This document shows positions 1-13,902 of a DNA stretch of 13,902 nt, piece after piece. Location of the stretch: IMG/VR virus record IMGVR_UViG_2718218136_000009, positions 1 through 13,902 of that record; one strand, written 5' to 3'. The stretch comes from a virus (Duplodnaviria; Heunggongvirae; Uroviricota; Caudoviricetes). The notes under the pieces were generated by a model. It worked only from the letters and a program-made list of their open reading frames with translations. It was not told the origin of the DNA and made no database searches. Every line of letters starts with the position of its first letter. Position 1 is the stretch's first letter. The translations under genes and the position numbers were made by a program.

Positions 1-1230
1 ATGAGCAGAGCACTTAACAAACTGAGCGATACACAGCTAAGAAAAATCAACGGCACACCAGCCCCAAAAACCACATTTCTTAATGACGGTGGAAACCTGA
101 GTATCAGACACTCCACCAGCGGCCTGTTAACCTGGTATTTCACCTACAGGGCAGGAACAGGACGCCAGGTATCACCGGAACGCCTGAAACTGGGAAATTA
201 TCCTGATCTGAGCCTGAAAGCAGCCAGGGAAAAAGCAGCACAGTGTCGCGCATGGCTGGCAGAGGGAAAAAATCCACGCCATGAGCTTAATTACTCCATA
301 CAGGAAGCACTAAAGCCGGTAACGGTGGGCGATGCGATCAGCTACTGGCTGGAAATGCACGTAAAGGAAAACCGTGTCGATTACGTCTCCCTGAAAAGCC
401 GCCTGAATAATCACGTCATACAGCATATTGGCAATATGCCACTGGATAAATGCGAGTTACGTCACTGGCTGGCCTGTTTTGACCGGATACGCAAAAAATC
501 ACCCGTAACATCTGGCCACATGATGCAGGCGTGCAAACAGGCGCTTAAGTTCTGCCGTAAACGTCGCTACGCAGTCAGTAACGTTCTGGATGATCTCAAC
601 GTGGTGGACGTTGGCAAAAAGCCGGGCATAAGCGAACGCGTGCTTAGTAACAAAGAACTGGGCGAATTATTACAGGCACTGGATAAAAAAATATTCCCAC
701 CCTACTACAGCGCACTAATCCGCCTCCTGATTGTGTTTGGCTGCCGAACCGGAGAACTGAGGCTGTCGGAGATCAGGGAGTGGGATTTTAAGGAAATGCT
801 CTGGACGGTACCGAAAGAACACAGCAAAACGAAGGTCGCCATATTCAGGCCAATACCGGAAAGCATTTTACCGTTCGTCACGCTGCTGGTGGAGCAGAAC
901 AAACACACAGGGCTATTACTCGGGGAACAGAAACAGGAAGCCAGCGTGTCGCAATACGGCAGATTCATGCACAAAAAATTAAACCATTCGCACTGGTCAC
1001 TACACGATATACGGCGCACGTTTACCACGATGCTGAACGATTTAGGCGTGGATCCGCATATTGTCGAACAACTCACCGCTCACCAGATGCCAGGGATGCA
1101 GCGAGTCTATAACCACTCCCGTTATCTCGATGCGAAACGTAACGCGCTGGATATGTGGACAGAGCGATTAGAGATACTGGCAGGTGCTCACGAAAACGTA
1201 ACCACACTGCCAATAGCCAGAGAAATATAA
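1..1230 (+). CDS. int: Tyrosine-type site-specific integrase (P4-like phage integrase family)
   Basis: 409-aa ORF starting at ATG. N-terminal arm-binding-like region (LSIRHSTSGLLTWYFTYR). Catalytic-domain motifs GCRTGEL (box I Arg), HDIRRTF (box II His-x-x-Arg) and a C-terminal Tyr region (VYNHSRY). Size typical of P4-type integrases. Confidence 0.9.
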   Translation: MSRALNKLSDTQLRKINGTPAPKTTFLNDGGNLSIRHSTSGLLTWYFTYRAGTGRQVSPERLKLGNYPDLSLKAAREKAAQCRAWLAEGKNPRHELNYSIQEALKPVTVGDAISYWLEMHVKENRVDYVSLKSRLNNHVIQHIGNMPLDKCELRHWLACFDRIRKKSPVTSGHMMQACKQALKFCRKRRYAVSNVLDDLNVVDVGKKPGISERVLSNKELGELLQALDKKIFPPYYSALIRLLIVFGCRTGELRLSEIREWDFKEMLWTVPKEHSKTKVAIFRPIPESILPFVTLLVEQNKHTGLLLGEQKQEASVSQYGRFMHKKLNHSHWSLHDIRRTFTTMLNDLGVDPHIVEQLTAHQMPGMQRVYNHSRYLDAKRNALDMWTERLEILAGAHENVTTLPIAREI

Positions 1231-1254
1231 TTTTTTTCGCGATTTTTTAGAACG

Positions 1255-1313
1255 GAAACAACGTGAAACAACGAGACACCACGACGAACAACGGCGAACA
1301 ATCTGGAACAAAC
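1255..1313. repeat. Six tandem 10-bp-phased GAACAA-core repeats between int and alpA
   Basis: Units begin at about 1255, 1265, 1275 (degenerate GACACCAC), 1285, 1295 and 1305: GGAAACAACG, TGAAACAACG, AGACACCACG, ACGAACAACG, GCGAACAATC, TGGAACAAAC. Preceded by T-tracts at 1231-1247. Confidence 0.75.
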
Positions 1314-1597
1314 TTGATTATCATCTGACTGACACCCTAAAAAGTTGATTTTCAGTCGTTTTACTGGCTTTTTGTACATTGGCGAATCACTCTTAAAAAC
1401 ATGTAAAAAAGGCGTAAAAACAGAATTTTATGCCTTTGCACCACAATGAATTAAAAGAGTTTTTATTCTCATTACCCCACTTCTGTAAAATGACCGCCGC
1501 CAGTGTTTGCCATTCCATAAACACCCTGACACAATCCGACGCACCACAACACAATAGGACACCAAATAACTCTTTAAGAAATATCAAAGGGGGAATT

Positions 1598-1786
1598 GTG
1601 TTAAGCACAGATCGCTTTATACGTGAAAAAGAATGTCAGCAACTTACAGGCCTGAGCCGCTCATGTCGGTACCGCCTGGAAAAAGCCGGACAATTCCCAT
1701 CACGGCGTAAGCTCGGCGGTCGTTCTGTTGGCTGGTCTTTATCCGAAGTTCTGGCATGGAAGGACAGCTGCGAGGCAGTTCACTAA
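1598..1786 (+). CDS. alpA: AlpA-family (excisionase-like, MerR-superfamily HTH) transcriptional regulator
   Basis: Sequence DRFIREKECQQLTGLSRSCRYRLEKAGQFPSRRKLGGRSVGWSLSEVLAWK matches the AlpA/prophage regulatory protein pattern (HTH followed by SVGW...E...W). Start chosen at in-frame GTG 1598 after SD AAAGGGGG (1586-1593), giving 62 aa. The upstream ATG at 1430 would add a low-complexity 56-aa extension with no SD. Confidence 0.8.
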   Translation: MLSTDRFIREKECQQLTGLSRSCRYRLEKAGQFPSRRKLGGRSVGWSLSEVLAWKDSCEAVH

Positions 1787-2204
1787 TCAGGCTGGCGGCA
1801 CACAGCCGCCACCCATCCACTAATACAGAGATCTAACCATGAATACTGGATATACGCCTGTACAGGGGCGGGGCTTCGTTCGGCCTGAAAACCAGAATCT
1901 GCAAAATTTCGCCGAAATTATTCCGGTTATTTCCGGCCTTATTGGCGGGAGTGAAACCAATATTGTTAACGCCAGAGCGTTGCAGATGTTTGATGATGAA
2001 AAGGGAGTAAATTTAACTTACACCCCTGACGGCAATCAGAATATGAGCATTATCTCTGAGTCAGTTTTCTACAAACTAATAAAAACAAAAAGCGCCCCGT
2101 TGCCGGAGCGCCCTTGCGAACAATTAACCTGCTGCGAAAAAAATGGATCAGTGCAGGGGAATTATATCAACCGTGTGGCGAAGCGCCACAATTGCCGGAT
2201 AACA

Positions 2205-2235
2205 GGTAAAACAAAGGCCACCCGCGACGGTGGCC
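2205..2235 (-). terminator. Rho-independent terminator for the minus-strand RHH gene
   Basis: Read on the minus strand: 7-bp GC stem GGCCACC / GGTGGCC (2216-2222 and 2229-2235) with a 6-nt loop, followed by UUUGUUUU (complement of 2208-2215). A second hairpin TGTGGCG-aag-CGCCACA lies at 2174-2190. Confidence 0.5.
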
Positions 2236-2338
2236 CCTCGACACAAGCTACACGTTATCCCCAACGCATGAGCATAGCCAACAATGCCACATTTGCGGCT
2301 GGTGGGCAATGTGATCAGTGTGCTGGCTTGCTGGTGGG

Positions 2339-2518
2339 CTATTCCTGCTCTTTGGCCTTGCGGCGCTGGCGGCGTTTGATCTCGCCACGCATGGCTGCGC
2401 TTATAAACTGCCCTGTACTTTCGCCTTCTTCTTTCACTTTTTCCATGCCTTCAATAATTTCATGGGCAATACGTGCAGTTACAGATTGTGATTTTGCATT
2501 CTTTGGACCTGTTGCCAT
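2339..2518 (-). CDS. Ribbon-helix-helix (CopG/Arc/ParD-like) DNA-binding protein, candidate repressor of the element
   Basis: 59 aa (MATGPKNAKSQSVTARIAHEIIEGMEKVKEEGESTGQFISAAMRGEIKRRQRRKAKEQE). Beta-strand-like SVTARI followed by two short helices, as in ParD/Arc, then a basic tail. Strong SD AAGGAG six nt upstream of the ATG on the minus strand (complement of 2525-2530). Only credible minus-strand gene in the window, divergent from the early operon. Confidence 0.7.
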   Translation of the reverse strand: MATGPKNAKSQSVTARIAHEIIEGMEKVKEEGESTGQFISAAMRGEIKRRQRRKAKEQE

Positions 2519-2539
2519 GTCTAACTCCTTATGTTTTTG

Positions 2540-2620
2540 GTGTAAGACAATATACACGAAAAAAAATTATTTTGAAGGATTGACGTGTAAGACACTACTG
2601 CTTTACATTGTGTCTTACAC
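2540..2620. promoter_or_regulatory. Divergent promoter region with three operator-like 11-bp sites (GTGTAAGACAC)
   Basis: GTGTAAGACAa at 2540-2550, GTGTAAGACAC at 2585-2595 and its exact reverse complement GTGTCTTACAC at 2610-2620 (11-bp inverted repeat, 14-bp spacer). Rightward -35 TTGACG (2580-2585) and -10 TACATT (2604-2609) overlap sites 2 and 3. A leftward -10 TATATT (complement of 2550-2555) lies next to site 1. Confidence 0.6.
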
Positions 2621-2717
2621 CTTGTTTATGCAAGGTGCAGAAACGACGAAACCCCGCACTGTTGGAGCAGTAACGGGGCTTCTAACCACCAACGATAGCA
2701 GAAGTATCGAGGTAGCT

Positions 2718-2924
2718 ATGTTAAATCATACCACACACCCGCAAGGGCGGGACTCGCACAACCTGAATAAATACATCTGGCGTTTTATCGCCCTGAGCAC
2801 CGCACAACCGCGCGTGATTCACATCGAGGCCACCAGCGAACAGGAAGCACGCCAGCAATCCCCGGCTGGTTGCGTGATGGTATTCGCCGCCCGTATTCGT
2901 CAGGGGGTACGCCATGTGCAATAA
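2718..2924 (+). CDS. Small early protein, tentatively Icd-like (host cell division inhibitor-like); first gene of the early operon
   Basis: 68 aa (MLNHTTHPQGRDSHNLNKYIWRFIALSTAQ...TSEQEARQQ...). SD GAGG five nt upstream of ATG 2718. The family assignment is from memory of Icd-like proteins in P4-type islands and is not verified. Confidence 0.5.
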   Translation: MLNHTTHPQGRDSHNLNKYIWRFIALSTAQPRVIHIEATSEQEARQQSPAGCVMVFAARIRQGVRHVQ

Positions 2925-3174
2925 CACCCGTCCGGACGCAGCCGCCGAAGCTATAAAAACACTGATTGATGCGCTGATTGATATTTCTGTTATCGCAGAC
3001 AAGGCGCATAAGCACGCCACCAGCGAAACAGAATATGCCGGGGCTTTCGTTCCTCACTCACTGGCTGTTATGCAACTTAGTGCTGATATGGCGCTGAATG
3101 AGGCCAAAGCCATCCTGATTGCTGATTGTGAAAATGGGGGGGGGTTATGCGTGATGATCGTTTTAATGCCCTGA
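2914..3174 (+). CDS. Hypothetical protein (86 aa)
   Basis: ATG overlaps the upstream stop (ATGTGCAATAA). SD-like GGGGG at 2903-2907. Helical-looking composition. Reads through a G9 tract at 3136-3144. Confidence 0.5.
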   Translation: MCNNTRPDAAAEAIKTLIDALIDISVIADKAHKHATSETEYAGAFVPHSLAVMQLSADMALNEAKAILIADCENGGGLCVMIVLMP

Positions 3175-3380
3175 AACAGGAATTTGATGGCGCACCGGAT
3201 GATACAGGCGATGCGTTGCTGGCTGTTAATGACCTGATAAAGGCCGCATATTTTCTTATTCATACCGCTGAATACATATCAACGGGCACAGATGTTCTTA
3301 ATATTGCGTCGGACTATGCGGAATATGTTGCAGAGGCGCGTTACAGAAGAAAATTCCCGGAGGATGTAAGCCATGGATAA
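3147..3380 (+). CDS. Hypothetical protein (77 aa)
   Basis: ATG immediately after the G9 tract, which can act as SD. Overlaps the upstream ORF by 28 nt. Operon context. Confidence 0.5.
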   Translation: MRDDRFNALKQEFDGAPDDTGDALLAVNDLIKAAYFLIHTAEYISTGTDVLNIASDYAEYVAEARYRRKFPEDVSHG

Positions 3381-3579
3381 AATCCCTTTCGATGTTCTTA
3401 TTCATTCTGAGAATGCATTAAACCGGGCACTGGAAATGAAAGCGGTATTAATTAAATTAACCGAAGTTCATGCCGAACAGGGGGATTTATTTTCTGCTTT
3501 CAGCACTCTGTTAACCCCGGTTATTGATGAATTAAACGCGGTTATGGAAATACACGACAAGACCCGCGCAGAGGAATAA
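3373..3579 (+). CDS. Hypothetical protein (68 aa)
   Basis: Start overlaps the upstream stop (ATGGATAA), indicating translational coupling. Operon context. Confidence 0.5.
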   Translation: MDKIPFDVLIHSENALNRALEMKAVLIKLTEVHAEQGDLFSAFSTLLTPVIDELNAVMEIHDKTRAEE

Positions 3580-3584
3580 AAACC

Positions 3585-3884
3585 ATGAAACAGAAAAATT
3601 CTGGCTTTACTGCCAGCGGCTCCGCTCGGCCTGAAATCCGCCCCGGCGATATTTTCCGGGATAACTACGGCGGCACGGTAACGATTAAAAGCGTGGCGGG
3701 ACGGTGTGTTACTTACCGCCGTGAAGGTTATGACTATGACTGCGTGATGCCTGTTTATCAGTTCCGCCGTGATTTTTCTCTGGTACAGGCAGCGCAACGC
3801 AGTAAGCCCACCAGCAGGGAAAAAGCACGGGAAAATATTAAGAAAATAAAAAGCATGCTCAGCGCATCCAGAGGTAAAAAATGA
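3585..3884 (+). CDS. Hypothetical protein (99 aa)
   Basis: SD GAGGAA (3571-3576) eight nt upstream of the ATG. Stop overlaps the Rep start (ATGA). Confidence 0.55.
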   Translation: MKQKNSGFTASGSARPEIRPGDIFRDNYGGTVTIKSVAGRCVTYRREGYDYDCVMPVYQFRRDFSLVQAAQRSKPTSREKARENIKKIKSMLSASRGKK

Positions 3885-5287
3885 AACTGGCACCGAACGT
3901 AAAACTGTTACCGAAAGATAAACACACTGAGGCGGTTATTTTTGCGGGTGATAATGCTCACTCCTTTGCAGAACATTACATGATTGCACAGGCCAAAAAA
4001 GCAGGCGATCCCATCCCTCCGGTTTACCTGGGCCGTTATCAGTTAAGCGAACTGGACAATTTACAGATTGTTGATGAAGGACGATACAGAGCAAAGGTCA
4101 TACGCGCCGGAAACCTGGACGATATGCAGATGCTGACCATTGCCACAAAACTGGCGATCGCAGGTGTCCGGGAAGCGCGGTTACTTTCAGAGAATTTCGA
4201 ACTACTGGAGGACTGGGGCGAGCAACTACCGCGCCTTAAAGAAACCTGGGAACGTGGGGAAAGCCTGGTCATGAATGGCGGAAAGCGAAAAATCACACTT
4301 CCCATCTCATGGGGTTCTGAGGGATTCGACGCGCAGCAAAGCTACGTAATTAAGGGGCTTATTCCGGCTGAATCATTATGCAGCACCTACGGGGCCAGCG
4401 GCTCTTATAAATCGTTCCTGGCTATTTCCTGGTCGTGCCATGTTGCCACAGGTATGGCATGGGGAGGCCGCAGGGTCAGTAAGGGCGCGGTTATCTATAT
4501 CGCTGGTGAAGGCAGCATGGGCGTAAAACGCCGCGTTAAGGCGTGGGAGATAACCCACGACAAGGTGGTTACAGATTTGTGCATCATTAACGCGCCTGTC
4601 TTCCCTGCATCGCCTGACTATGTGGAGCAGGTTATCAGAACTGCCGGACTTGTTAAGAGCAGAACGGGCGAAAATGTGCGGCTGATTGTGATAGACACGC
4701 TGGCCCGTTGCTTTGGTGGGAATGATGAAAATGATTCCCGTGATATGGGCGCATTTATCCAGGGGTGTGACGCGATAAAGCAGGCCACAGGGGCCACGGT
4801 GCTGGTGGTTCACCATTCCGGCAAGGATGAAACAAAGGGGGCGCGTGGTTCCAGCGCATTCCGTGCCGCACTGGATGCAGAGTACCGAATCAGCCGGGAA
4901 AATTCAGACGTTACAGCACTGGTGGCGGCGTGTACGAAGATGAAGGACGCAGAGGAGCCAAAAGAAAGCGCATACGACCTTAAAAGCGTGGAGGTGTTTA
5001 CCGATACAGATGGCGAAGAGATTGTGTCCATGGTGGTGATTGACGTTCCCCGCGCCCCTGCTGAACTGGAACGCATCGAGGAGGCCGGGAACAAGACGGA
5101 AAATCACACGGCTTTATGGGGTTGTATCCGATCACGTATACAGCATGGTGATAAATGCACGATCCCGTTGCTACGTGACGACATGAAAAAGCTGGGATAT
5201 GACACAAAACACCTTAAACGATGGTTAGCAAAACTGGAAAAAGACGGCGTGATTTGCGTCGATGGGGATGATGTTCACCCACTGTAA
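3881..5287 (+). CDS. RecA-like/AAA_25-type P-loop ATPase with C-terminal winged-helix region; candidate replication initiator or helicase (Rep)
   Basis: 468 aa. Walker A GASGSYKSF, Walker B LIVIDTLARC, and VLVVHHSGKD as in RepA/DnaB-C-like ATPases. SD GAGG six nt upstream. An iteron array follows the stop directly. Confidence 0.8.
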   Translation: MKLAPNVKLLPKDKHTEAVIFAGDNAHSFAEHYMIAQAKKAGDPIPPVYLGRYQLSELDNLQIVDEGRYRAKVIRAGNLDDMQMLTIATKLAIAGVREARLLSENFELLEDWGEQLPRLKETWERGESLVMNGGKRKITLPISWGSEGFDAQQSYVIKGLIPAESLCSTYGASGSYKSFLAISWSCHVATGMAWGGRRVSKGAVIYIAGEGSMGVKRRVKAWEITHDKVVTDLCIINAPVFPASPDYVEQVIRTAGLVKSRTGENVRLIVIDTLARCFGGNDENDSRDMGAFIQGCDAIKQATGATVLVVHHSGKDETKGARGSSAFRAALDAEYRISRENSDVTALVAACTKMKDAEEPKESAYDLKSVEVFTDTDGEEIVSMVVIDVPRAPAELERIEEAGNKTENHTALWGCIRSRIQHGDKCTIPLLRDDMKKLGYDTKHLKRWLAKLEKDGVICVDGDDVHPL

Positions 5288-5488
5288 AAAGTGGGCGTTA
5301 AAAGTGGGAATAGTGGGTAATTTAACCGAAATTTAACAAAATCGCCCACTTTCCCACGTGTATACATCCAAAAAAGTGGGCACTAAAAAAATACTTATGA
5401 AACAGTACGATATAAAACCACAAAATCCCAGGTGGGACGAAGTGGGAAACCATGAAAAGTGGGCAGAAAAAGTGGGCACAGGTGGGCG
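5286..5488. repeat. Iteron array (about 11 copies of A/G-GTGGG, consensus AAAGTGGGCA) with central AT-rich segment; candidate replication origin
   Basis: AGTGGG cores at 5290, 5303, 5312, 5375, 5441, 5458, 5471; GGTGGG at 5431 and 5481; inverted copies CCCACT at 5345-5350 and CCCAC at 5353-5357. AT-rich stretch 5384-5427 between the iteron groups. Position is immediately 3' of the Rep gene. Confidence 0.7.
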
Positions 5489-5489
5489 C

Positions 5490-5741
5490 ATGACAAGAAA
5501 AACCAGAGATAAGACAGCACCAAAATATAAAGCGTTAGACATGACAGAGCACGCCTTAAAGGTGGCAATCAGAACGATAGACCGCCACGCCGGGGAAGGA
5601 TACGCGAAAGCACATCCCGAACTGATAAGCGCATTCATGACCACGACGGCGGCAAACTTTGCCACGCTGACAGAACGGGAGATTGCCGAAGCGGAACAGG
5701 TGACAACCATCAACGTTAAAACCGGAGAGCATACAGCATGA
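5490..5741 (+). CDS. Hypothetical protein (83 aa from ATG 5490)
   Basis: The reading frame opens at GTG 5358 inside the iterons. ATG 5490 follows the last iteron and AGGTGGG. ATG 5398 and 5541 are alternatives. Stop overlaps the SSB start. Confidence 0.4.
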   Translation: MTRKTRDKTAPKYKALDMTEHALKVAIRTIDRHAGEGYAKAHPELISAFMTTTAANFATLTEREIAEAEQVTTINVKTGEHTA

Positions 5742-6163
5742 CAGCACAGATAGCGGCTTACGGGCGGCTGGTGGCTGACCCGCAGTTAAAGACCACCAGC
5801 AAAGGGACACAAATGGCGATGGCGAGTATGGCGGTTCCCCTGCCGTGCAGCCAGGCCGATGACGGAACGGCGACGATGTGGTTATCCGTCCTGGCGTTTG
5901 GCAGACAGGCCGACGCACTGGCAAAGCACCACAAAGGCGAACTCGTGAGCGTGGCGGGTAACATGCAGGTAAGCCAGTGGACAGGCCAGAACGGCGAAAC
6001 GCGGCAGGGCTGGCAGGTTATCGCAGACAGTGTAATCAGTGCCAGAACGGCGCGACCGGGCGGCAAAAAAGGCCAGCAGGGCCAGGCCACTGACGCACTG
6101 AACAGGGCAAAACAACAGACAGGCCAGCACGATGACCCGTACGGGGACGGGATACCGTTTTAA
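5738..6163 (+). CDS. ssb: Single-stranded DNA-binding protein (SSB-like)
   Basis: 141 aa. OB-fold-like core (AAYGRLVADPQLK..., WLSVLAFGRQADALAKHHKGELVSVAGNMQVSQWTGQNGETRQ) and acidic C-terminal tail ending DGIPF, as in the bacterial SSB D-D-D-I-P-F tip. SD GGAGAG upstream. Confidence 0.8.
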   Translation: MTAQIAAYGRLVADPQLKTTSKGTQMAMASMAVPLPCSQADDGTATMWLSVLAFGRQADALAKHHKGELVSVAGNMQVSQWTGQNGETRQGWQVIADSVISARTARPGGKKGQQGQATDALNRAKQQTGQHDDPYGDGIPF

Positions 6164-6199
6164 TTCACAACAGCGAACAGAGTAATTACAGGGGAAGGC

Positions 6200-6730
6200 A
6201 TGACAAAGATGACCATTAACCGAAAACCGAAAGGCATTTACGGCACGCCGCAGAAAATACCGCAGGCGGCACAGCAGCAGGATAAAACCACATCGGCGCA
6301 TAAAGTGATACCCGGCAATCAGAACGCACAGCAGAAACCCACAGGGGCGACAGCGTGGCGGCATATGACCAAACGCCAGCGCAAAAACCGCAGACGCGTT
6401 AACCGCCTTATTGAATTGTGGCCAGAATTATTCAGCCGGGAAGCACCGAAGCCGCTTAAGGTGGGGATATTCGACGACCTGATGCAGGATATCGCCGCCA
6501 GGGGGCTGACATTCGGGCCGGGGGCATTACGTGCGACGCTGGCATCCTATGCGCAGTCTCCGCGCTATTACCGCGCCTTAATAGCTGGTGGGGTACGCTA
6601 CGACCTGAAAGGCCAGCCATGTGGGGAAGTGACACCACAGGAACAGCAGGAGGCAGAAACGCGGCTGATGGCGCTGAATGAGAAGCACAAGCGCCAGCGC
6701 CGGGCAGCAAAGGGGGATACATGCCAGTGA
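6200..6730 (+). CDS. ProQ/FinO-family RNA-binding protein (FinO domain)
   Basis: 176 aa. Segment LFSREAPKPLKVGIFDDLMQDIAARGL...LRATLASYAQSPRYYRALIAGGVRYDLKGQPCGEVT aligns by eye with the E. coli ProQ N-terminal domain ([23 protein letters not shown]...LRSALRLYTSSWRYLYGV...RVDLDGNPCGEL). Basic, disordered N-terminal extension. ATG 6209 is an alternative start. Confidence 0.8.
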   Translation: MTKMTINRKPKGIYGTPQKIPQAAQQQDKTTSAHKVIPGNQNAQQKPTGATAWRHMTKRQRKNRRRVNRLIELWPELFSREAPKPLKVGIFDDLMQDIAARGLTFGPGALRATLASYAQSPRYYRALIAGGVRYDLKGQPCGEVTPQEQQEAETRLMALNEKHKRQRRAAKGDTCQ

Positions 6731-6969
6731 CATTTGAAGAAGTTCAGCAACATAAAAAGTTTCATGGTTTTGATGATCTGGAAACCACGACAGCAAAAAA
6801 ATATCGCCGTCTGCTTTCTTCCGATGCGTTGTTTGTTGTGGATCATCATGATTTTCTGCGCAGCTCACTGACCGGGGAAATTTTCGCAACCAACCGTGAG
6901 CAGGTGGAAGCGATGATCGAATATCTGTGGAAAATAAGACGCAGAATGCGGGATCCAGTGAAACAATAA
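6721..6969 (+). CDS. Hypothetical protein (82 aa)
   Basis: Start overlaps the ProQ/FinO stop (ATGCCAGTGA). SD AGGGGG upstream. Last gene of the early operon. Confidence 0.5.
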   Translation: MPVTFEEVQQHKKFHGFDDLETTTAKKYRRLLSSDALFVVDHHDFLRSSLTGEIFATNREQVEAMIEYLWKIRRRMRDPVKQ

Positions 6970-7024
6970 AGCGATAAAGGCCTGGATTTTTTTTCAGGTC
7001 TTTTTTTCAGGTTTTGTAAATTAT

Positions 7025-7050
7025 TTGTTCGTGGTTGTTCCAGGTTGTTC
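7025..7050. repeat. Three TTGTTC repeats at exact 10-bp phasing upstream of the capsid operon (reverse complement of the int-alpA GAACAA repeats)
   Basis: TTGTTC at 7025-7030, 7035-7040 and 7045-7050. The reverse complement cGAACAAcctgGAACAAccacGAACAA closely matches 1285-1313 (cGAACAAcggcGAACAAtctgGAACAA). Tandem TTTTTTTCAGGT repeats sit just upstream at 6987-7012. Confidence 0.7.
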
Positions 7051-7244
7051 GGTGATTCTGGCTGATGTTTACATACTGATTTTTATGTATATGTTGGCGT
7101 GTGGCACTCAGACGTGAGCCGCCACAATGCCGCCTGACCCCCTGCGCGATGCCGGGTTGATCTGCGAGATGCCGAGAGTGTCGGGCGGCGCTCCCTCCGT
7201 GTTGGTTTCACGTCCTGAATCTTAACCAATACGAGAAAACCTTC

Positions 7245-8414
7245 ATGAAGAAATTAATCGAACTCCGCCAGCAAAAAACCGCCCTGAAAAACCAGATGCG
7301 ATCCCTGCTGGAAAAAGCCGACAGTGAAAACCGCAGCCTGAACGATGACGAGGGCAAACAGTTTGATGAACTGCGTGCAAAAGCCGATTCCCTCGACACA
7401 GAAATTTCCCGCCTCGAGTCTGTGGCTGATGAAGAACGCAGCAAGCCAGGAACGGGCATCCAGAAATTATCATCTGATGAATTGCGTAACTATATCGTAA
7501 CCGGAGATGTGCGATCACTGTCCACCAGCACTGACAGCGGCAGGGATGGCGGATATACCGTAATTCCTGAGCTTGATCGCGAAGTCATGCGCCAGCTACA
7601 GGATGACAGTGTTATGCGCGTGATCGCGACCGTGAAGACCGCAAAATCAAATGAGTTTCAGAAACTGGTTTCCACTGGCGGCGCAACTGTAGGAAGAGGC
7701 ACAGAAGGCAGCGCGCGCAGCGAAACCAACACCCCGAAAATTGAACGCGTAACCATCAAGCTGAATCCGATCTACGCCTACCCGAAAACCACGCAGGAAA
7801 TCCTGGATTTTTCAGAGGTGGATATTCTGGGCTGGTTATCCTCCGAAATTGCCGACACGTTCGCCAGCACCGAAGAGGATGATTTTGTTAATGGCGACGG
7901 TAACGGCAAGCCGAAAGGATTCATGGCTTACACCCGTGCGGCGACCAGTGACAAAACCCGCGCTTTTGGCACCATTGAAAAAATGGTAGCGGCAAGTGGA
8001 ACCGCCATTACAGCGGACGAACTGATCGACATTCTCTACAAGCTGAAAGCGAAATACCGCAAAAATGCCGTCTGGGTGATGAACTCGGGCACGGCAGGGA
8101 CACTACAGAAGCTGAAAAATGAGAACGGCGATTATATCTGGCGCGACAGCCTTAAAGAAGGTGCGCCGGATATGTTGCTTGGTCGTCCTGTTTACTGCCT
8201 GGAGTCCATGCCGGACATCGGCGCAGGAAAAGCACCGCTAGCGGTTGGCGATTTCAGTCGTGGTTATTTCATCGTTGATCATGTAACAGGGATTCGCACC
8301 CGACCGGACAACATTACTGAACCCGGATTCTACAAGGTCCACACGGATAAATATCTGGGCGGTGGTGTGGTGGATTCAAACGCCATCAAAATTCTGGAAA
8401 TGAAAGCTGGCTAG
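7245..8414 (+). CDS. Phage major capsid protein, HK97 family
   Basis: 389 aa. N-terminal coiled-coil delta-domain-like region (MKKLIELRQQKTALKNQMRSLLEKADSE...LRAKADSLDTEISRLE) followed by a capsid-fold-sized body. Immediately upstream of the prohead protease and portal genes. Confidence 0.85.
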   Translation: MKKLIELRQQKTALKNQMRSLLEKADSENRSLNDDEGKQFDELRAKADSLDTEISRLESVADEERSKPGTGIQKLSSDELRNYIVTGDVRSLSTSTDSGRDGGYTVIPELDREVMRQLQDDSVMRVIATVKTAKSNEFQKLVSTGGATVGRGTEGSARSETNTPKIERVTIKLNPIYAYPKTTQEILDFSEVDILGWLSSEIADTFASTEEDDFVNGDGNGKPKGFMAYTRAATSDKTRAFGTIEKMVAASGTAITADELIDILYKLKAKYRKNAVWVMNSGTAGTLQKLKNENGDYIWRDSLKEGAPDMLLGRPVYCLESMPDIGAGKAPLAVGDFSRGYFIVDHVTGIRTRPDNITEPGFYKVHTDKYLGGGVVDSNAIKILEMKAG

Positions 8415-8426
8415 TCATGAGTAAGG

Positions 8427-8448
8427 AGGAGGCTGCGGCCTCCTTTTT
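8427..8448 (+). terminator. Rho-independent terminator or attenuator directly after the major capsid gene
   Basis: Stem AGGAGGC (8427-8433) / GCCTCCT (8438-8444), loop TGCG, then a T-run to 8448. Lies between the capsid stop (8414) and the protease start (8469). Confidence 0.6.
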
Positions 8449-8468
8449 CAGCTTTATGGAGTACACCG

Positions 8469-9029
8469 ATGAAAAACACCGATTTTGAAATCCGCACATC
8501 TGAACTGACCGCCAGCGATAAAAAACTGGTGGGTTATGCCGTTCGCTGGAACAGCCTTTCAGAAATTATCTGGGACGAATTCCGCGAACAGTTCACGCCG
8601 GGGGCTTTTGCTGACTATCTGGCGGCGGGTAATGATGTGCGCTGCCTGTATGAGCATGACTATACCCAACTGCTGGGGCGCACCAAATCCGGCACTCTGG
8701 TACTGACTGAGGATAACACCGGGTTACGTTTTGAGCTGACACCGCCGGATACCCAGCTTGGAAAAGATGTGCTTACGCTGGTGGAGCGTGGCGACATTAC
8801 AGGAATGAGCTTTGGTTTTCGCGCATTATGCGAGGAGTGGAGTATCGCGCAAAAACCGTATTTGCGTACCGTAACTGCCGCAGAACTCCGTGAAATCACG
8901 ATAACGTCGATGCCTGCTTATCCCGAATCCGGCGTGGAGATTGCCCACCGTTCGTTGTTTGCACAGCACCCTGAATTACGCCCGGCAGGAAATAATCGTC
9001 ATCGCTGGGCTGAACTGGCGGGGTTGTGA
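8469..9029 (+). CDS. Prohead maturation protease, HK97 family
   Basis: 186 aa. Motifs typical of HK97-type prohead proteases: GYAVRWNSLSE, FTPGAF, CLYEHD...LLGRTKSGTLVL, RGDITGMSFGF. SD GGAG seven nt upstream. Confidence 0.85.
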   Translation: MKNTDFEIRTSELTASDKKLVGYAVRWNSLSEIIWDEFREQFTPGAFADYLAAGNDVRCLYEHDYTQLLGRTKSGTLVLTEDNTGLRFELTPPDTQLGKDVLTLVERGDITGMSFGFRALCEEWSIAQKPYLRTVTAAELREITITSMPAYPESGVEIAHRSLFAQHPELRPAGNNRHRWAELAGL

Positions 9030-9030
9030 T

Positions 9031-10254
9031 ATGTGGTGGCCTTTTAGTCGTAAAAAAAGCGAGCTGCGTAACCTGTCCATTGATGATTTTCTGGCGCTGT
9101 CCGGCGTACCGAATACCGGAGCCGGAGAATATGTTTCTGCCGGGACGGCTGAATCATTGCCTGCTGTGATGAACGCGGTTTCTGTCATCGCTGAGGCGGT
9201 GGCCACGATGCCGTGTTATCTGTATCTGGTACGTAATGACAAGGGCAGGGAGGCGCGGGAATGGCTGGACAGTCACCCGGTCGATATTCTGCTGAATGAG
9301 CAGCCTAATTCGTGCCAGACACCTTACCAGTTTAAACGCACAATGATGCGTCACTGCCTGCTGAACGGTAACGCCTATGCGGTTATTGAGTGGGGGCGGG
9401 ACGGTCAGCCAAAATCACTTCATCCTTATGCGCCGGGGTGTGTTGTACCGGAACGCACAGGCGCACACAAATACCGCTATACCATCACCGAACCCTATAC
9501 AGGAACGGTGCGCACGTATTTACAGGAAGAAGTTCTGCATCTCCGCTATGCCTCGGATGATGGCTTTCTGGGGCGCTCCCCTGTCACGATTTGCCGTGAG
9601 GCACTTGGGCTTGGCCTTGCTCAACAGCGCCACGGAGCCAGCATTATGAAAGATGGCATGATGGCGGCAGGGATTATCACGTCAGGCGAATGGCTGGACG
9701 GCGTGAAAGGTAAACAGGCATTGGATGCTCTGGAACGCTACAAGGGGGCGAAAAATGCCGGAAAAACGCCAATCCTTGAAGGGGGCATGGATTACAAGCA
9801 ACTGGGAATGAGTAACCAGGATGCGGAATGGCTGGCCTCCCGTCGCTTCTCCATTGAAGACATTGCCCGTATGTTCAACGTATCGCCTATTTTTCTGCAG
9901 GAATACAGCAATAGCACCTACAGCAATTTCAGCGAGGCAAGCCGCGCGTTTCTGACCATGACAATGCGCCCATGGCTGGCGAACTTCGAACAGCAAATCA
10001 AGGCTGCTTTGCTGGTGGCTTCTCCCGTACCTGGTACCCGTTATCTGGTTGAGTTTGATTCAGCCGATTTACTGCGCGCCACACCTACCGAACGTTACGC
10101 CACGTATGAGAAAGGAATTAAGAACGGGATCATGAATCCGAACGAAGCCCGTGAGCGTGAGGGAATGCCGCCGCGTGAAGGTGGCGACGAGTTCAGCCAG
10201 GCATGGAAGCAGGAAGTGACAATCAGCAAGAACAGTAAGGGCGGTGACGAATGA
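9031..10254 (+). CDS. Phage portal protein, HK97 family
   Basis: 407 aa from ATG 9031, two nt after the protease stop. N-terminus MWWPFSRKKS...LSIDDFLAL and body (NAVSVIAEAVATMP, PILEGGMDYKQLGMSNQDAEWL, FSIEDIARMFNVSP) fit the portal pattern. The six-frame ORF beginning at 8941 is an upstream read-through of the frame. Confidence 0.85.
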   Translation: MWWPFSRKKSELRNLSIDDFLALSGVPNTGAGEYVSAGTAESLPAVMNAVSVIAEAVATMPCYLYLVRNDKGREAREWLDSHPVDILLNEQPNSCQTPYQFKRTMMRHCLLNGNAYAVIEWGRDGQPKSLHPYAPGCVVPERTGAHKYRYTITEPYTGTVRTYLQEEVLHLRYASDDGFLGRSPVTICREALGLGLAQQRHGASIMKDGMMAAGIITSGEWLDGVKGKQALDALERYKGAKNAGKTPILEGGMDYKQLGMSNQDAEWLASRRFSIEDIARMFNVSPIFLQEYSNSTYSNFSEASRAFLTMTMRPWLANFEQQIKAALLVASPVPGTRYLVEFDSADLLRATPTERYATYEKGIKNGIMNPNEAREREGMPPREGGDEFSQAWKQEVTISKNSKGGDE

Positions 10255-10589
10255 TAGCCGGAAATATGCGGGACCGGGTGACGATTATGACATTTACCAC
10301 ACAGCGCCTGCCGTCAGGTGCGATCCAGCAGATATGGACGGAAGGGGAAACCATCTGGGCAGAGGTCAAGGGGATCAGCGGACGGGAATTACTGACCGCA
10401 GGCGCAGAAACCGCACCTGCAACGATTCGGGTATGGGTTCGCTATCGTGGCGACATATCCGCCGCCAGTCGCCTGAAAGTGCTTACCGGCGCTTTTGCCG
10501 GGAGCACGCTTAATATCATCGGGATCCCCTTACCTGATGCGAAAAGAACCCGGCTGGAAATTCTGGCAAAGGTGGGTACAGAAAAATGA
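10251..10589 (+). CDS. Head closure / head-tail adaptor protein (gp16-like)
   Basis: 112 aa. N-terminal MRDRVTI motif and W...VKGISGRE pattern typical of head-tail joining proteins. Start overlaps the portal stop (ATGA). Confidence 0.65.
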   Translation: MIAGNMRDRVTIMTFTTQRLPSGAIQQIWTEGETIWAEVKGISGRELLTAGAETAPATIRVWVRYRGDISAASRLKVLTGAFAGSTLNIIGIPLPDAKRTRLEILAKVGTEK

Positions 10590-10882
10590 CAGCAGAAAAA
10601 ATAACCCTGGAAGAGGCCAAACTTCACTGCCGCATAGATGGTAACACAGAAGACACACTGATTCAGGCATACATAAGCGCGGCGCTGGAGGTATGCCAGA
10701 AGCATATTGGCAGGCGTTTTGATGACGGCCTGGAATTTACCCCTGCAATAAAAATTGGTTGCCTGATGTACATCTCGCAACTGTACGAGTACCGGACAAC
10801 GCTTGGCGATACCGATACAAAAGAAATTCCCCTGACGATTTCCGCGCTCTGGTCGGTTTATCGTGATGTGGGGGTGTACTGA
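10586..10882 (+). CDS. gp6-like head-tail connector protein
   Basis: 98 aa. ITLEEAKLHCRIDGNTEDTLIQAYISAA is typical of the gp6-like connector family. Start overlaps the upstream stop. SD AAGGTGGG upstream. Confidence 0.65.
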   Translation: MTAEKITLEEAKLHCRIDGNTEDTLIQAYISAALEVCQKHIGRRFDDGLEFTPAIKIGCLMYISQLYEYRTTLGDTDTKEIPLTISALWSVYRDVGVY

Positions 10883-11322
10883 TGCCATGGCAACCATTAA
10901 GGCGATGCACTGAGCCGGGCTGTAATAAGCGCGTGAAGTCCGGCAAGTGTGAAGAGCACAGGCGGGCTGCATGGCGTGCAGAGGATGCCAGACGGGGACA
11001 CCGCCGCGCACGTGGGTATTCCCGACTGTGGGACAAATACCGCGCCATGTACCTGAAAAAAAATCCGTTATGCGTGCGTTGTCTGGCTAAGGGTATTTAT
11101 ACGCCAGCTCTTGTGGTGGATCACATCATTCCCATCAATGGCGGCGGTGATGTTCTCTTCTGGCCTGAGTGGAACCACCAGGCATTGTGCCAGACGTGCC
11201 ACAACCGTAAGACGACACGGGAAGATCCAGCCACGAAAGCGAACCGTAAGGCGGGCATGTATCGCGAGCAGGAAGAACGGGCGGCACATCGTAACGACTG
11301 GATGTATGGCGATGATGACTGA
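10882..11322 (+). CDS. HNH endonuclease, phage packaging-associated
   Basis: 146 aa. Cys pairs (CTEPGC...CEEH; CVRC) and HNH core VVDHIIPINGGGD...NHQALCQTCHNRKT. ATG overlaps the upstream stop by 1 nt (TGATG). Sits directly upstream of TerS and TerL. Confidence 0.85.
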   Translation: MPWQPLRRCTEPGCNKRVKSGKCEEHRRAAWRAEDARRGHRRARGYSRLWDKYRAMYLKKNPLCVRCLAKGIYTPALVVDHIIPINGGGDVLFWPEWNHQALCQTCHNRKTTREDPATKANRKAGMYREQEERAAHRNDWMYGDDD

Positions 11323-11491
11323 ACAGGAGCAAAACAGGCTGATACGTGGACTGATAAGGCAGCGTGACTTATGGAAGACACAGGAGACAGGGCACAAAGC
11401 CAACAGGACAGAGCGCACAGAACGCACCACAGCGAAGCGATTAACCGACCGTGACCGCGAGGTCATGGAATGTTTTCGCAATCGCTGGTGA
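11306..11491 (+). CDS. Possible small ORF (61 aa) overlapping the HNH 3' end
   Basis: ATG 11306 in the +1 frame relative to HNH (MAMMTEQEQNRLIRGL...). No clear SD and no family recognised. May be non-coding. Confidence 0.25.
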   Translation: MAMMTEQEQNRLIRGLIRQRDLWKTQETGHKANRTERTERTTAKRLTDRDREVMECFRNRW

Positions 11492-11610
11492 GGCCGTCAG
11501 AGGGGGTGGGGGAGGTTTTCAGGACGAAACCGCCCCTGCCGGACACCGACCGCCTCCTCAAATTTTTGTGCACGGGAATTTTTTTGAAAATAATTGGGCG
11601 AAAAAAGAAC

Positions 11611-11967
11611 ATGGCAAGACCACCAAAAGCCCCCGCTTACCTGGATGAAATCGCGGTCAGGCAGTGGAAGGAAAAATCGCGCCAGCTTTCCGGGCGGGAA
11701 GACCTTACCCCCGCCGACTGGAGCAATCTGGAACTGTATTGTGTTAACTACTCCATATACCGCAAAGCCGTCGAAGACCTTGCGACGCGCGGGTTCAGCA
11801 TTGTTAACAGTCAGGGCAGCGAGAGCAGAAACCCCGCCCTGAGCGCAAAGGCTGACGCGGAAAGAATAATGATCAAAATGGCTTCTTTGCTGGGTTTTGA
11901 CCCGGTAAGCCGCCGCAGAAATCCACCGGAAACAGAGGAAGAGGACGAGCTTGACCGCCTGGCATGA
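11611..11967 (+). CDS. terS: Terminase small subunit (P27-family-like)
   Basis: 118 aa from ATG 11611: MARPPKAPAYLDEIAVRQWKE...LELYCVNYSIYRKAVEDL...NPALSAKADAERIMIKMASLLGFDPVSRRR, a pattern typical of P27-family TerS. The extension from ATG 11470 is low-complexity and not credited. Confidence 0.8.
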   Translation: MARPPKAPAYLDEIAVRQWKEKSRQLSGREDLTPADWSNLELYCVNYSIYRKAVEDLATRGFSIVNSQGSESRNPALSAKADAERIMIKMASLLGFDPVSRRRNPPETEEEDELDRLA

Positions 11968-13612
11968 GTACGCAGAAGGCGTAAAAAACGGCAAAATTAC
12001 GGCCTGTAAACGACTGAAACAGGCCGTTAAACGGTATTTTTATGACCTTGAAAACCCCCTTTACACGTTCGAACCGGAGGTCGTGGAGCGGTTTATTGCC
12101 TTTTCCAGGGTGTGTCCGCACGTAAAAGGCGCAATGCGTGGTAGCCCCATTGAGCTGGAGCCGTGGCAGCAGTTCGCCTTTGCGTGCATCCTGGGCTTTA
12201 AGGTTAAGGCCACCGGACGGCGCAAATACACCAGCGCATTCATTGAAGTACCGCGAAAAAATGCCAAATCCACGGTCGCCGCTATCCTGGCTAACTGGTT
12301 TCTGGTTATGGAAAACGGGCAGCAGGATATTTACACCGCCGCCGTGAGTCGTGATCAGGCGCGGATCGTGTTTGATGATGCGCGTCAGATGTGCCTTTTA
12401 TCCCGACCGTTACGAAAGCGGGTAAATATTCAGGCACACAAGGTGATACACCCGAAAACCAACAGCCTGTTAAAGCCACTGGCAGCAAAAGCGGCAACCA
12501 TTGAAGGTACAAACCCGAGTCTTGCCATTGTAGATGAATATCACCTGCACCCTGACAACGGGGTTTATTCCGCGCTTGAACTGGGAATGGGGGCGCGTCC
12601 GGAGGGGTTATTATTTGCCATCACCACATCGGGGAGCAACGTTGTTTCAGCCTGTAAACAACACTACGACTATTGCTGCCAGATACTGGATGGTGAAGAG
12701 GTGAACGAATCCATGTTCGTACTGATTTACGAGCTGGATGATGAAAGCGAGGTTGACGATCCGGCGATGTGGATAAAGGCGAATCCCAATATCGATGTTT
12801 CCGTCGATCGTGAAAAACTGGCCTCAACCATCCAGAAAGCGCGGGGTATTCCGTCGCAGTGGGTGGAAATGCTCACCAAGCGATTCAATATCTGGTGTCA
12901 GGGGGCTACGCCGTGGATGGGTAACGGTGCATGGGCGGAGTGCGCCGGAACGTTCACGGAGGCGGATTTATACGGGCAGGAGTGCTACGCGGGGCTGGAC
13001 TTATCATCAACCAGCGATATTTCCAGCGTGTGCTATGCCTTTCCGGTCGGTAAAAAGATTATGCTGGTTTCCCGTCACTATCTGCCGGAATTTCAGCTAC
13101 AGAACCCCGCCAATAAAAACCGCGCCATCTATCGCCAGTGGGTAAAGGCGGGCTGGATACGCACAACACCGGGTGACTGCATTGATTATGACCGTATCCG
13201 TGATGACATCATGGCGGATGCAGAGAATTTCAATATCAGGCTGGTGGGCTTCGATACATGGAACGCCACGCACCTGAGGACGCAGCTACAGGGCGCAGGA
13301 TTTGAGGTGGAGCCGTTCCCGCAAACATACCTTCGTTTCAGTCCGGCGGCGAAATCGTTCGAGGTTTTTGTTAACCGGAAGGTGATTGTGCATCGTGGTG
13401 ATCCGGTGCTGGCCTGGTCAATGAGTAATGTTGTGATGCAGAGTGACGCGAACGCCAATATCAAGCCGAACAAGAAAAAATCATCCAACAAGATAGACCC
13501 GAGCGTTGCGGCGCTGATGGCGTTTGGCACATTCCAGTCAGAGCATGAAGAATTTGCATTTGATATGAGTGACAGCCACAAAGAGCGGCTTGCGGCGTTT
13601 GATGGGGTATGA
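11951..13612 (+). CDS. terL: Terminase large subunit (Terminase_1-like ATPase-nuclease)
   Basis: 553 aa. First in-frame start is TTG 11951, preceded by SD GAGGAAGAGGA. Overlaps terS by 17 nt. Conserved N-terminus (AEGVKNGKITACKRLKQAVKRYFYDLEN), Walker A VPRKNAKST, Walker B LAIVDEYH. Confidence 0.9.
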   Translation: MTAWHEYAEGVKNGKITACKRLKQAVKRYFYDLENPLYTFEPEVVERFIAFSRVCPHVKGAMRGSPIELEPWQQFAFACILGFKVKATGRRKYTSAFIEVPRKNAKSTVAAILANWFLVMENGQQDIYTAAVSRDQARIVFDDARQMCLLSRPLRKRVNIQAHKVIHPKTNSLLKPLAAKAATIEGTNPSLAIVDEYHLHPDNGVYSALELGMGARPEGLLFAITTSGSNVVSACKQHYDYCCQILDGEEVNESMFVLIYELDDESEVDDPAMWIKANPNIDVSVDREKLASTIQKARGIPSQWVEMLTKRFNIWCQGATPWMGNGAWAECAGTFTEADLYGQECYAGLDLSSTSDISSVCYAFPVGKKIMLVSRHYLPEFQLQNPANKNRAIYRQWVKAGWIRTTPGDCIDYDRIRDDIMADAENFNIRLVGFDTWNATHLRTQLQGAGFEVEPFPQTYLRFSPAAKSFEVFVNRKVIVHRGDPVLAWSMSNVVMQSDANANIKPNKKKSSNKIDPSVAALMAFGTFQSEHEEFAFDMSDSHKERLAAFDGV

Positions 13613-13902
13613 CGAGAATGAGCGAAACCGAACTACTAAAAATAATCCGCCGCATTACCGGAATCAGCCAGGCAGCAGGCAAACAGGAGGCCACGCAGCC
13701 GGACAGCGTGATAGCCGAAAATTACGCGCGTGTGGTGGCTGAGGTGATGCGCCGTGATGGTATAGAGCTTAACGGCGTGGATATGCGCGACATACGAATC
13801 AGAGTTCTGGAGTTGTTGTCATATCGTCGCCGCGTGGAGATGTACCGGGAGAAAGAAAAAATTACTTACCACTGGAAGAAGCCGGAACGGTTACGGCGGT
13901 AA
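13609..13902 (+). CDS. Hypothetical protein (97 aa), last gene of the late operon
   Basis: Start overlaps the terL stop (ATGA); ATG 13618 is an alternative. No family recognised. Basic C-terminus. Confidence 0.45.
   Translation: MTRMSETELLKIIRRITGISQAAGKQEATQPDSVIAENYARVVAEVMRRDGIELNGVDMRDIRIRVLELLSYRRRVEMYREKEKITYHWKKPERLRR

Follow-up and report, generated by a model that had tools for sequence, protein, structure and literature searches.

Which protein, if any, keeps a Gram-negative phage satellite silent while it is integrated in the chromosome of its host? The 2018 paper describing the prototype island EcCICFT073 called a global repressor in Gram-negative islands "unclear"; AlpA is an activator and not a repressor, alpA is turned on by helper phages, AlpA is required for induction, and when over-expressed alone it induces EcCICFT073 (Fillol-Salom et al., PMC6092414). 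The question is raised anew by a 13,902-nt stretch of viral DNA (IMG/VR record IMGVR_UViG_2718218136_000009, positions 1 to 13,902; hereafter the window), where a first-pass annotation had proposed that the only minus-strand gene encodes a ribbon-helix-helix (RHH) protein acting as autoregulated master repressor of the early operon. That annotation had also remarked that an RHH repressor alongside AlpA is not the textbook arrangement of Gram-negative phage-inducible chromosomal islands (PICIs), which agrees with the published account and with our literature search, in which no RHH regulator was found to be described in Gram-negative islands.

The Window Is a Capsid-Forming Phage-Inducible Chromosomal Island

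From its ORFs, their domains, and an annotated E. coli element of 95% identity, the window qualifies as a capsid-forming PICI (cf-PICI; definition as in 10.1101/2022.09.08.507074). It encodes an integrase, AlpA, a replication gene, and its own capsid, protease, portal, connector, HNH, TerS, and TerL proteins, tail and lysis genes are absent, and the same genes are annotated in the E. coli relative. The integrase gene (positions 1-1230) is followed by alpA (1598-1786, plus strand; Phage_AlpA domain, Pfam PF05930, E 1.5e-17), the start of which was set by homology to the 62-aa annotated proteins of relatives, within an ORF that is open from 1430. To the right of the minus-strand gene, with which alpA is convergent, a rightward operon is headed by the gene for a 68-aa Icd-like protein (2718-2924, plus strand; NCBIfam NF033153, E 6e-20; PHROG 6196). 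Next in gene order come a DUF4222 protein, an AAA_25/RepA helicase (3881-5287), SSB, and a ProQ/FinO-domain protein (6200-6730, plus strand; Pfam E 4e-25), after which lie the genes for the HK97-type capsid, protease, portal, connector, HNH, TerS, and TerL.

Several smaller features were recorded around alpA. The gene is preceded by a promoter-like TTGCCA-17-CACAAT with an upstream TG (1507-1535, plus strand), which also occurs in EcCICFT073 (L086 6435-6463). Directly 3′ of the alpA stop codon is a GC-rich hairpin without a T-run (1793-1811, plus strand), with a near-identical counterpart behind alpA of the O157:H7 island (L084). At the start of the interval from alpA to the minus-strand gene is an apparently truncated Bro-N-type reading frame (1839-2090, plus strand), where relatives have a complete Bro-N or AntA gene. 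The Rfam int-alpA RNA motif (RF02996) was found between int and alpA in loci L003, L009, L010, L035, L047, and L059; in the window it was not detected at E ≤ 1, and an Rfam scan of the whole stretch returned no family at that threshold.

The Sole Minus-Strand Gene Encodes a Predicted RHH Protein

In keeping with the first-pass annotation, the window has a single minus-strand coding sequence, which encodes 59 aa (2339-2518, minus strand; ATG at 2518, stop at 2339) and is likewise the sole minus-strand CDS of the annotated 95%-identical E. coli element. This gene, hereafter the RHH gene, has a Shine-Dalgarno sequence, AAGGAG, 6 nt upstream of its ATG (2525-2530, minus strand; read directly). An alternative GTG start at 2557, giving 72 aa, is unused by the homologues, all of which start MATG. 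About 100 nt past the stop codon lies an intrinsic-terminator-like hairpin with a T-run (2213-2238, minus strand), and a second leftward terminator-like hairpin follows at 2088-2115 (minus strand). No credible ORF was found between the RHH stop codon and the first of these (2338-2213), which, as a terminator-like element, implies that the RHH gene is monocistronic.

The RHH fold anticipated in the first-pass annotation was recovered by AlphaFold2 from a 52-homologue alignment (pLDDT 91.6). The model, a single-chain prediction, comprises an extended N-terminus, a helix at residues 19-28, a GEST turn, and a helix at residues 35-58, that is, a beta-alpha-alpha fold of about 45 residues as in RHH proteins. 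The protein can thus be divided into a beta-strand at residues ~9-17 (KSQSVTARI), of which residues 12-17 alternate between polar and hydrophobic, as would suit a dimeric antiparallel ribbon, helix A (19-28), and helix B (35-58), which is preceded by a turn of the RHH G-x-S/T type (G32-E33-S34-T35, residues 32-35). N7, S10, R16, E33, S34, F38, E46, R50, and R52 are invariant across the 52 homologues and T35 is nearly so, while other residues between them vary. Helix B ends in a conserved basic tail, EIKRRQRRK. As EIKRRQR(R/K)K (residues 46-59; 2339-2380), the tail is the best-conserved part of the protein in every specificity class (see below), and it stretches helix B well past the usual RHH length; it could contact flanking DNA, mediate dimer-dimer contacts, or serve as a docking site for an inducer.

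The protein scores 67.6 bits with NCBIfam NF041551 (YlcI/YnfO), for which the cutoff is 30, and the match (E 7e-19) spans all 42 profile positions. The 127 homologues that we found are spread across Enterobacterales, their RefSeq names agree with membership in the YlcI/YnfO family, and two PHROG families without assigned function also match. Curated RHH families did not: the protein has no Pfam match at E ≤ 0.1, and so none to Arc, RHH_1, or CopG, and its similarity to P22 Arc is not significant (no match to the Pfam Arc model; hhalign probability 14%). Neither phmmer nor a profile hmmsearch retrieved anything relevant from PDB sequences, and tblastn against 50,697 phage records gave no match. 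Membership in the RHH superfamily is accordingly assigned by predicted fold, not by a curated sequence model. Pfam PF13132 (DUF3950) matches K-12 YlcI (E 1.9e-20) but not the RHH protein, and the satellite-type proteins therefore form a separate subfamily. A literature search retrieved no described function for YlcI, YnfO, or DUF3950.

Three Repeats Lie at the Core Elements of Predicted Divergent Promoters

Between the RHH start codon and the next plus-strand ATG (at 2718, corrected from 2719) lies a gap of 199 bp, the region of roughly 200 bp in which three copies of an 11-mer had originally been noted. At one mismatch or fewer, GTGTAAGACAC has exactly three matches in the window, compared with 0.16 expected, and none of 200 shuffles reached three. 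All three stand on promoter-like sequence matches, designated P_L and P_R, and all three lie, with the RHH gene, less than 100 bp apart. Site 1, the putative operator O_L (GTGTAAGACAA, 10/11; 2540-2550, plus strand), overlaps the -10 and start region of leftward P_L (2549-2576, minus strand; -35 TTCAAA at 2576-2571, 16-nt spacer, -10 TATATT at 2554-2549), which bears out the earlier placement of one copy beside the promoter of the RHH gene itself; the last base of this site is off consensus because it also belongs to the -10 hexamer. Site 2, O_R1 (GTGTAAGACAC, perfect; 2585-2595, plus strand), is located in the spacer of rightward P_R (2580-2609, plus strand; -35 TTGACG at 2580-2585, 18-nt spacer, -10 TACATT at 2604-2609) and shares the last base of the -35 hexamer. 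Site 3, O_R2 (GTGTAAGACAC, perfect; 2610-2620, minus strand), begins right after the P_R -10 and covers the expected start site. Separated by 14 nt, O_R1 and O_R2 make up a perfect 11-bp inverted repeat at the rightward -10 and start, exactly as first described. Being near-consensus, P_R would be strongly active if unrepressed, and the Icd-like, DUF4222, RepA-helicase, SSB, and downstream genes would be under its control.

The Layout Is Conserved across Enterobacterales

Scanning one genome per species, we recovered 80 loci encoding RHH relatives in Enterobacterales. Their plan is near-universal: measured from the start codon, site 1 begins at 24 nt and the rightward -35 (TTGA) at 64 nt. A conserved TATACT-type hexamer on the opposite strand adjoins site 1, and their overlap accounts for a last base that is invariably off consensus at this site; site 2 shares the last base of the rightward -35 and runs into the spacer. 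A rightward -35 of the form TTGAnn is present in 77 of 77 unique loci, with a -10 TAnnnT at the correct spacing in 75 of these; the leftward -10 is kept in ~70 of the 77, and the leftward -35 is poorly conserved. Site 3 follows site 2 after 11, 12, 14, or 24 nt and starts at -2 to +11 relative to the end of the rightward -10. Its orientation is direct in some loci and inverted in others, which fits the binding of one dimer per pseudo-symmetric site. In 51-55 of 82 loci, the gene order int, alpA, leftward RHH gene, operators, and rightward Icd-like gene could be detected. Of 5,426 complete E. coli genomes, at least 812 contain a DNA-level relative, in up to four copies each.

Operator Class Tracks Residues of the Beta-Strand

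The sites of all these loci share the form GTG-N5-CAC, and their central 5 bp fall into ~15 classes, including TAAGA, TATTT, CGATT, GCTGA, GGCCA, and GAATC as well as GTGTT, GGTGC, TCCGA, TTCAA, GCATT, and GAACA. Within a locus, one and the same class is found at all three sites. Class maps almost one-to-one onto residues 10-16 of the beta-strand: SQSVTAR is paired with TAAGA, SQMTTVR with TATTT, SQQLNAR with CGATT, SKKLEAR with GCTGA, SQ(S/A)LK(S/A)R with GGCCA, and SLQVSVR with GTGTT. When used to recognize pairs of loci of the same operator class, residues 10-16 gave an AUC of 0.97, column 14 alone 0.95, column 12 0.90, and the remainder of the RHH protein 0.93, figures that are inflated by shared inheritance since the gene and its operators are adjacent. 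The control AUCs were 0.57 for rightward-flank DNA and 0.65 for AlpA identity; several pairs of loci combine identical AlpA with different operator classes, and similar Xenorhabdus Icd-like proteins adjoin at least seven classes. Column 14 differs in 94%, and column 12 in 60%, of the different-class pairs whose residues 17-50 are at least 70% identical; in same-class pairs whose identity elsewhere does not exceed 70%, column 14 is the same in 80% and column 12 in 69%. Positions 5 and 8 of the N-terminal arm also contribute to operator class. In a profile alignment to Arc, which is weak, residues 12, 14, and 16 fall opposite Q9, N11, and R13 of Arc, its base-contacting residues in the Arc-operator structure.

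Repeated sites on core promoter elements thus co-vary with the putative DNA-reading residues of the protein encoded beside them, the pattern of a repressor with its cognate operators, and it is supported by these comparisons that the 11-mers behave as operators of the RHH protein. Specificity appears to be set mainly by two residues, 12 and 14. Replacement of S12/T14 by K12/E14, together with Q11K, would be expected to move preference from GTGTAAGACAC to GTGGCTGACAC.

With the mapping of strand to class established, we turned to four loci that were not part of the first set, and the operator class of all four was that expected from the beta-strand. EcCICFT073 has the strand SQALKAR and the class GGCCA, with GTGGGCCACAC present twice and GTGGGGGACAG once. 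In Edwardsiella (P0056), SQTIAAR is accompanied by TT(C/T)AA operators, and in Serratia (P0043), SQSVTAR by TAAGA operators, with site 3 inverted as in the window. The fourth, P0083 (L087 1201-1380, E. coli CP028739.1), is a naturally occurring chimera that joins an N-terminal half of the SKKLEAR type to a C-terminal half with the same sequence as in the CFT073 protein. It has GCTGA operators, which match the N-terminal half, indicating that specificity follows residues 1 to ~34.

Thirteen genomes hold two to four RHH loci each (L004/L024/L052/L058, L022/L046/L063/L064, and 11 others). None of the 25 within-genome pairs shares a class, compared with 3.6 expected from a genus-restricted permutation (P ~0.01), a comparison to be read with the caveat that draft assemblies can collapse identical repeats and so hide same-class co-resident pairs. 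The distribution looks like heteroimmunity between co-resident satellites.

A Structured Leader Follows the Rightward Promoter

The 5′ leader of the P_R transcript (2618-2713, plus strand) is predicted to be structured (fold z-score -2.9). It comprises a 5′ hairpin (2618-2637), a conserved bipartite hairpin (2648-2682), a near-invariant linker (CUUCUAACCAC, 2678-2688) that overlaps the 3′ end of the bipartite hairpin, and a hairpin beside the ribosome-binding site of the Icd-like gene (2688-2713). Compensatory changes were found in 12 of 14 predicted leader pairs across 29 loci. Rfam has no family matching the leader in 18 related loci, and the leader is therefore not a detectable C4/IsrK/CI-type immunity RNA; the complement of the linker was not found elsewhere in the window. 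Given a conserved structured leader, control may be partly post-transcriptional, as a second layer. The ProQ/FinO domain encoded downstream has an RNA chaperone fold, possibly of interest beside this conserved structured RNA.

The Prototype Island Carries the Same Module

The same RHH gene and three-operator module is present in EcCICFT073 (L086 7474-7653; NC_004431.1 1380473-1380652), where P_R has 10 of 12 consensus matches. The RHH gene of this island bears the tag C_RS30120, far out of sequence with its neighbors (C_RS069xx), suggesting a later re-annotation that would explain the omission of the gene from discussion. EcCICFT073 also has a second small leftward ORF between the RHH gene and the terminator (57 aa, basic; L086 7243-7416), and the terminator after this ORF is conserved with 2088-2115 of the window.

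The O157:H7 island at the roxA site (L084), which matches the published description of the prototype cf-PICI (EcCIEDL933 being a candidate identity), has no YlcI-type gene. In the same slot is an unannotated 57-aa ORF (L084 4300-4473, minus strand) with weak similarity to Arc (E 0.04) and YlcI (E 0.001), adjoining two copies of CATGGTAATTACC (L084 4468-4515). Its product is encoded on at least 1000 contigs and is named hypothetical every time. The comparison points to a conserved slot for a small leftward repressor that is filled by different proteins.

Discussion

As an explanation of the whole locus, we favor with reasonable confidence an RHH repressor that acts at O_L, O_R1, and O_R2, silencing P_R and regulating its own synthesis, and from site position and co-variation it is likely that the RHH protein binds the 11-bp sites and represses P_R. 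An RHH dimer would insert its two-stranded beta-ribbon into the major groove of each GTG-N5-CAC site, with the invariant Arg16 of both subunits probably recognizing the symmetric GTG/CAC flanks; the variable residues 12 and 14, helped to some extent by the N-terminal arm, would read the central 5 bp. With O_R1 (in the -35/-10 spacer) and O_R2 (at the start site) occupied, RNA polymerase would be blocked at P_R, and in the integrated state the Icd-like/replication operon would stay off, as probably would the packaging genes that follow it. At O_L, slightly imperfect and presumably weaker, occupancy of the gene's own -10 would limit RHH synthesis (negative autoregulation). The RHH gene and its three operators would thereby make up a self-contained specificity cassette between conserved alpA and Icd-like flanks, existing in at least 15 specificities, and since each cassette has its own specificity, co-resident satellites would not cross-repress.

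Induction, which needs AlpA, probably overrides this switch through rightward transcription from the alpA promoter, which would cross the RHH gene in antisense and continue into the operon. The terminators predicted between the two genes, at 2238-2213 and 2115-2088, are both leftward; with alpA and the RHH gene convergent and no rightward terminator predicted on the way, we hypothesize that AlpA-activated transcription could reach the operon. The first-pass proposal of an autoregulated master repressor finds support in each respect that sequence analysis can address. An autoregulated repressor agrees with the layout of ~80 loci and with the co-variation, repression and autoregulation themselves being deduced from the positions of the sites. 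The word "master" may overstate its role, because AlpA over-expression alone induces EcCICFT073, which carries the module, and the RHH protein is therefore not dominant over AlpA.

That dependence on AlpA also fits a reading in which the RHH protein does bind the sites but fine-tunes expression or controls copy number, like CopG on the rep promoter, or shuts the operon off after induction, while silence in the integrated state would be due chiefly to the lack of AlpA and to the structured leader. Such a role would suit an activator that is both needed for induction and sufficient when over-expressed in a module-carrying island, a P_R operon that encodes replication proteins, a leader RNA conserved with covariation, and cf-PICIs that are reported to make capsids without an inducing phage. 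We nevertheless consider it rather unlikely: the operators lie on the core elements of a near-consensus promoter that would be constitutive if unrepressed, and both the diversification of classes and the lack of a shared class in all 25 within-genome pairs point to an immunity-type function.

It is much less probable that the 11-mers are bound by another factor, be it the Icd-like protein, AlpA, or a host protein, and that the RHH protein has its role elsewhere. PHROG 6196 and 1743, to which the Icd-like protein relates, are labelled "transcriptional repressor", and AlpA is a known DNA-binding regulator of Gram-negative islands. However, operator class is nearly independent of both the right flank and AlpA identity, identical AlpA proteins occur with different classes, and similar Xenorhabdus Icd-like proteins stand beside many; the AUC controls led us to reject both as binders of the 11-mers. 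A host factor, for its part, cannot explain locus-specific cores that agree at all three sites. Very improbable, too, is an RHH protein that serves as the antitoxin of a toxin-antitoxin pair or as a partition/centromere-binding protein, with the repeats as its autoregulatory or centromere sites. No ORF separates the RHH gene from its terminator, of the three sites only one is on the RHH gene's own promoter, the other two being on that of the divergent operon, and a Pfam/NCBIfam scan of nine other proteins in the window gave no toxin-like match. The identity of a type II antitoxin was rejected, there being no co-transcribed toxin gene beside the RHH gene.

Systems in which an RHH repressor acts on repeated operators at divergent promoters are well known. 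The closest in mechanism is the immI region of P22, with the RHH repressors Mnt and Arc and the divergent P_mnt and P_ant, along with omega and CopG. Unlike immI, the module described here has one protein and three sites, lacks a downstream antirepressor gene within the window, belongs to a satellite rather than a phage, and has diversified into many specificity classes. Omega (pSM19035) and CopG (pMV158) are RHH repressors of replication or copy-number genes. Their sites are 7-bp heptads in long arrays and a single 13-bp element, respectively, whereas here three 11-bp GTG-N5-CAC sites are spaced apart, and they are encoded by the first gene of the operon that they regulate, whereas the RHH gene is divergent and monocistronic.

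In proposed role, an island repressor at a divergent region beside int, the RHH protein resembles Stl/Rpr of Gram-positive PICIs (SaPIs), which are much larger proteins of a different fold class. With its 59 aa, its gene opposite to int, and an AlpA activator beside it, the likeness is one of function only. Stl/Rpr are transcribed co-directionally with int, prevent expression of the excision, replication, and packaging genes as long as no helper phage is active, and are lifted by binding a helper-phage protein (PMC6092414). Related in sequence are K-12 YlcI (DLP12) and YnfO (Qin), members of the same NF041551 family (37.6 bits for YlcI, against 67.6 for the RHH protein) that share an R-x-P strand followed by two helices. 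K-12 ylcI (L082 6252-6446) is divergent from nohD, a terminase small subunit homologue, across the DLP12 cos region, and no GTG-N5-CAC triple site is found upstream of it, so the lambdoid YlcI/YnfO proteins may differ in their job from the satellite subfamily.

What is new is a likely function for a YlcI/YnfO-type protein, a likely satellite repressor, and a diversified, orthogonal set of repressors and operators. Gram-negative phage-inducible islands carry virulence, resistance, and anti-phage defense genes between bacteria; the founding paper left the existence of a repressor open, and of their regulators only the activator AlpA had been studied. A concrete candidate is now at hand, in that the missing repressor of Gram-negative phage satellites is likely a YlcI/YnfO-type RHH protein, which assigns a likely function to part of an uncharacterised family and makes the module of real interest to the satellite field. 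Naturally orthogonal pairs of a 59-residue repressor and an 11-bp operator could be of use in studies of protein-DNA recognition and in synthetic circuits. More tentatively, and with the odds still against it, the cassette may be the immunity determinant of these islands, with at least 15 orthogonal pairs, a readable code at residues 12 and 14, and the point at which helper phages act. If this is true, immunity cassettes would let several satellites coexist in one cell, the helper phage would act either directly on the RHH protein or through AlpA-driven antisense read-through, and the gap open since the 2018 description of Gram-negative islands would close.
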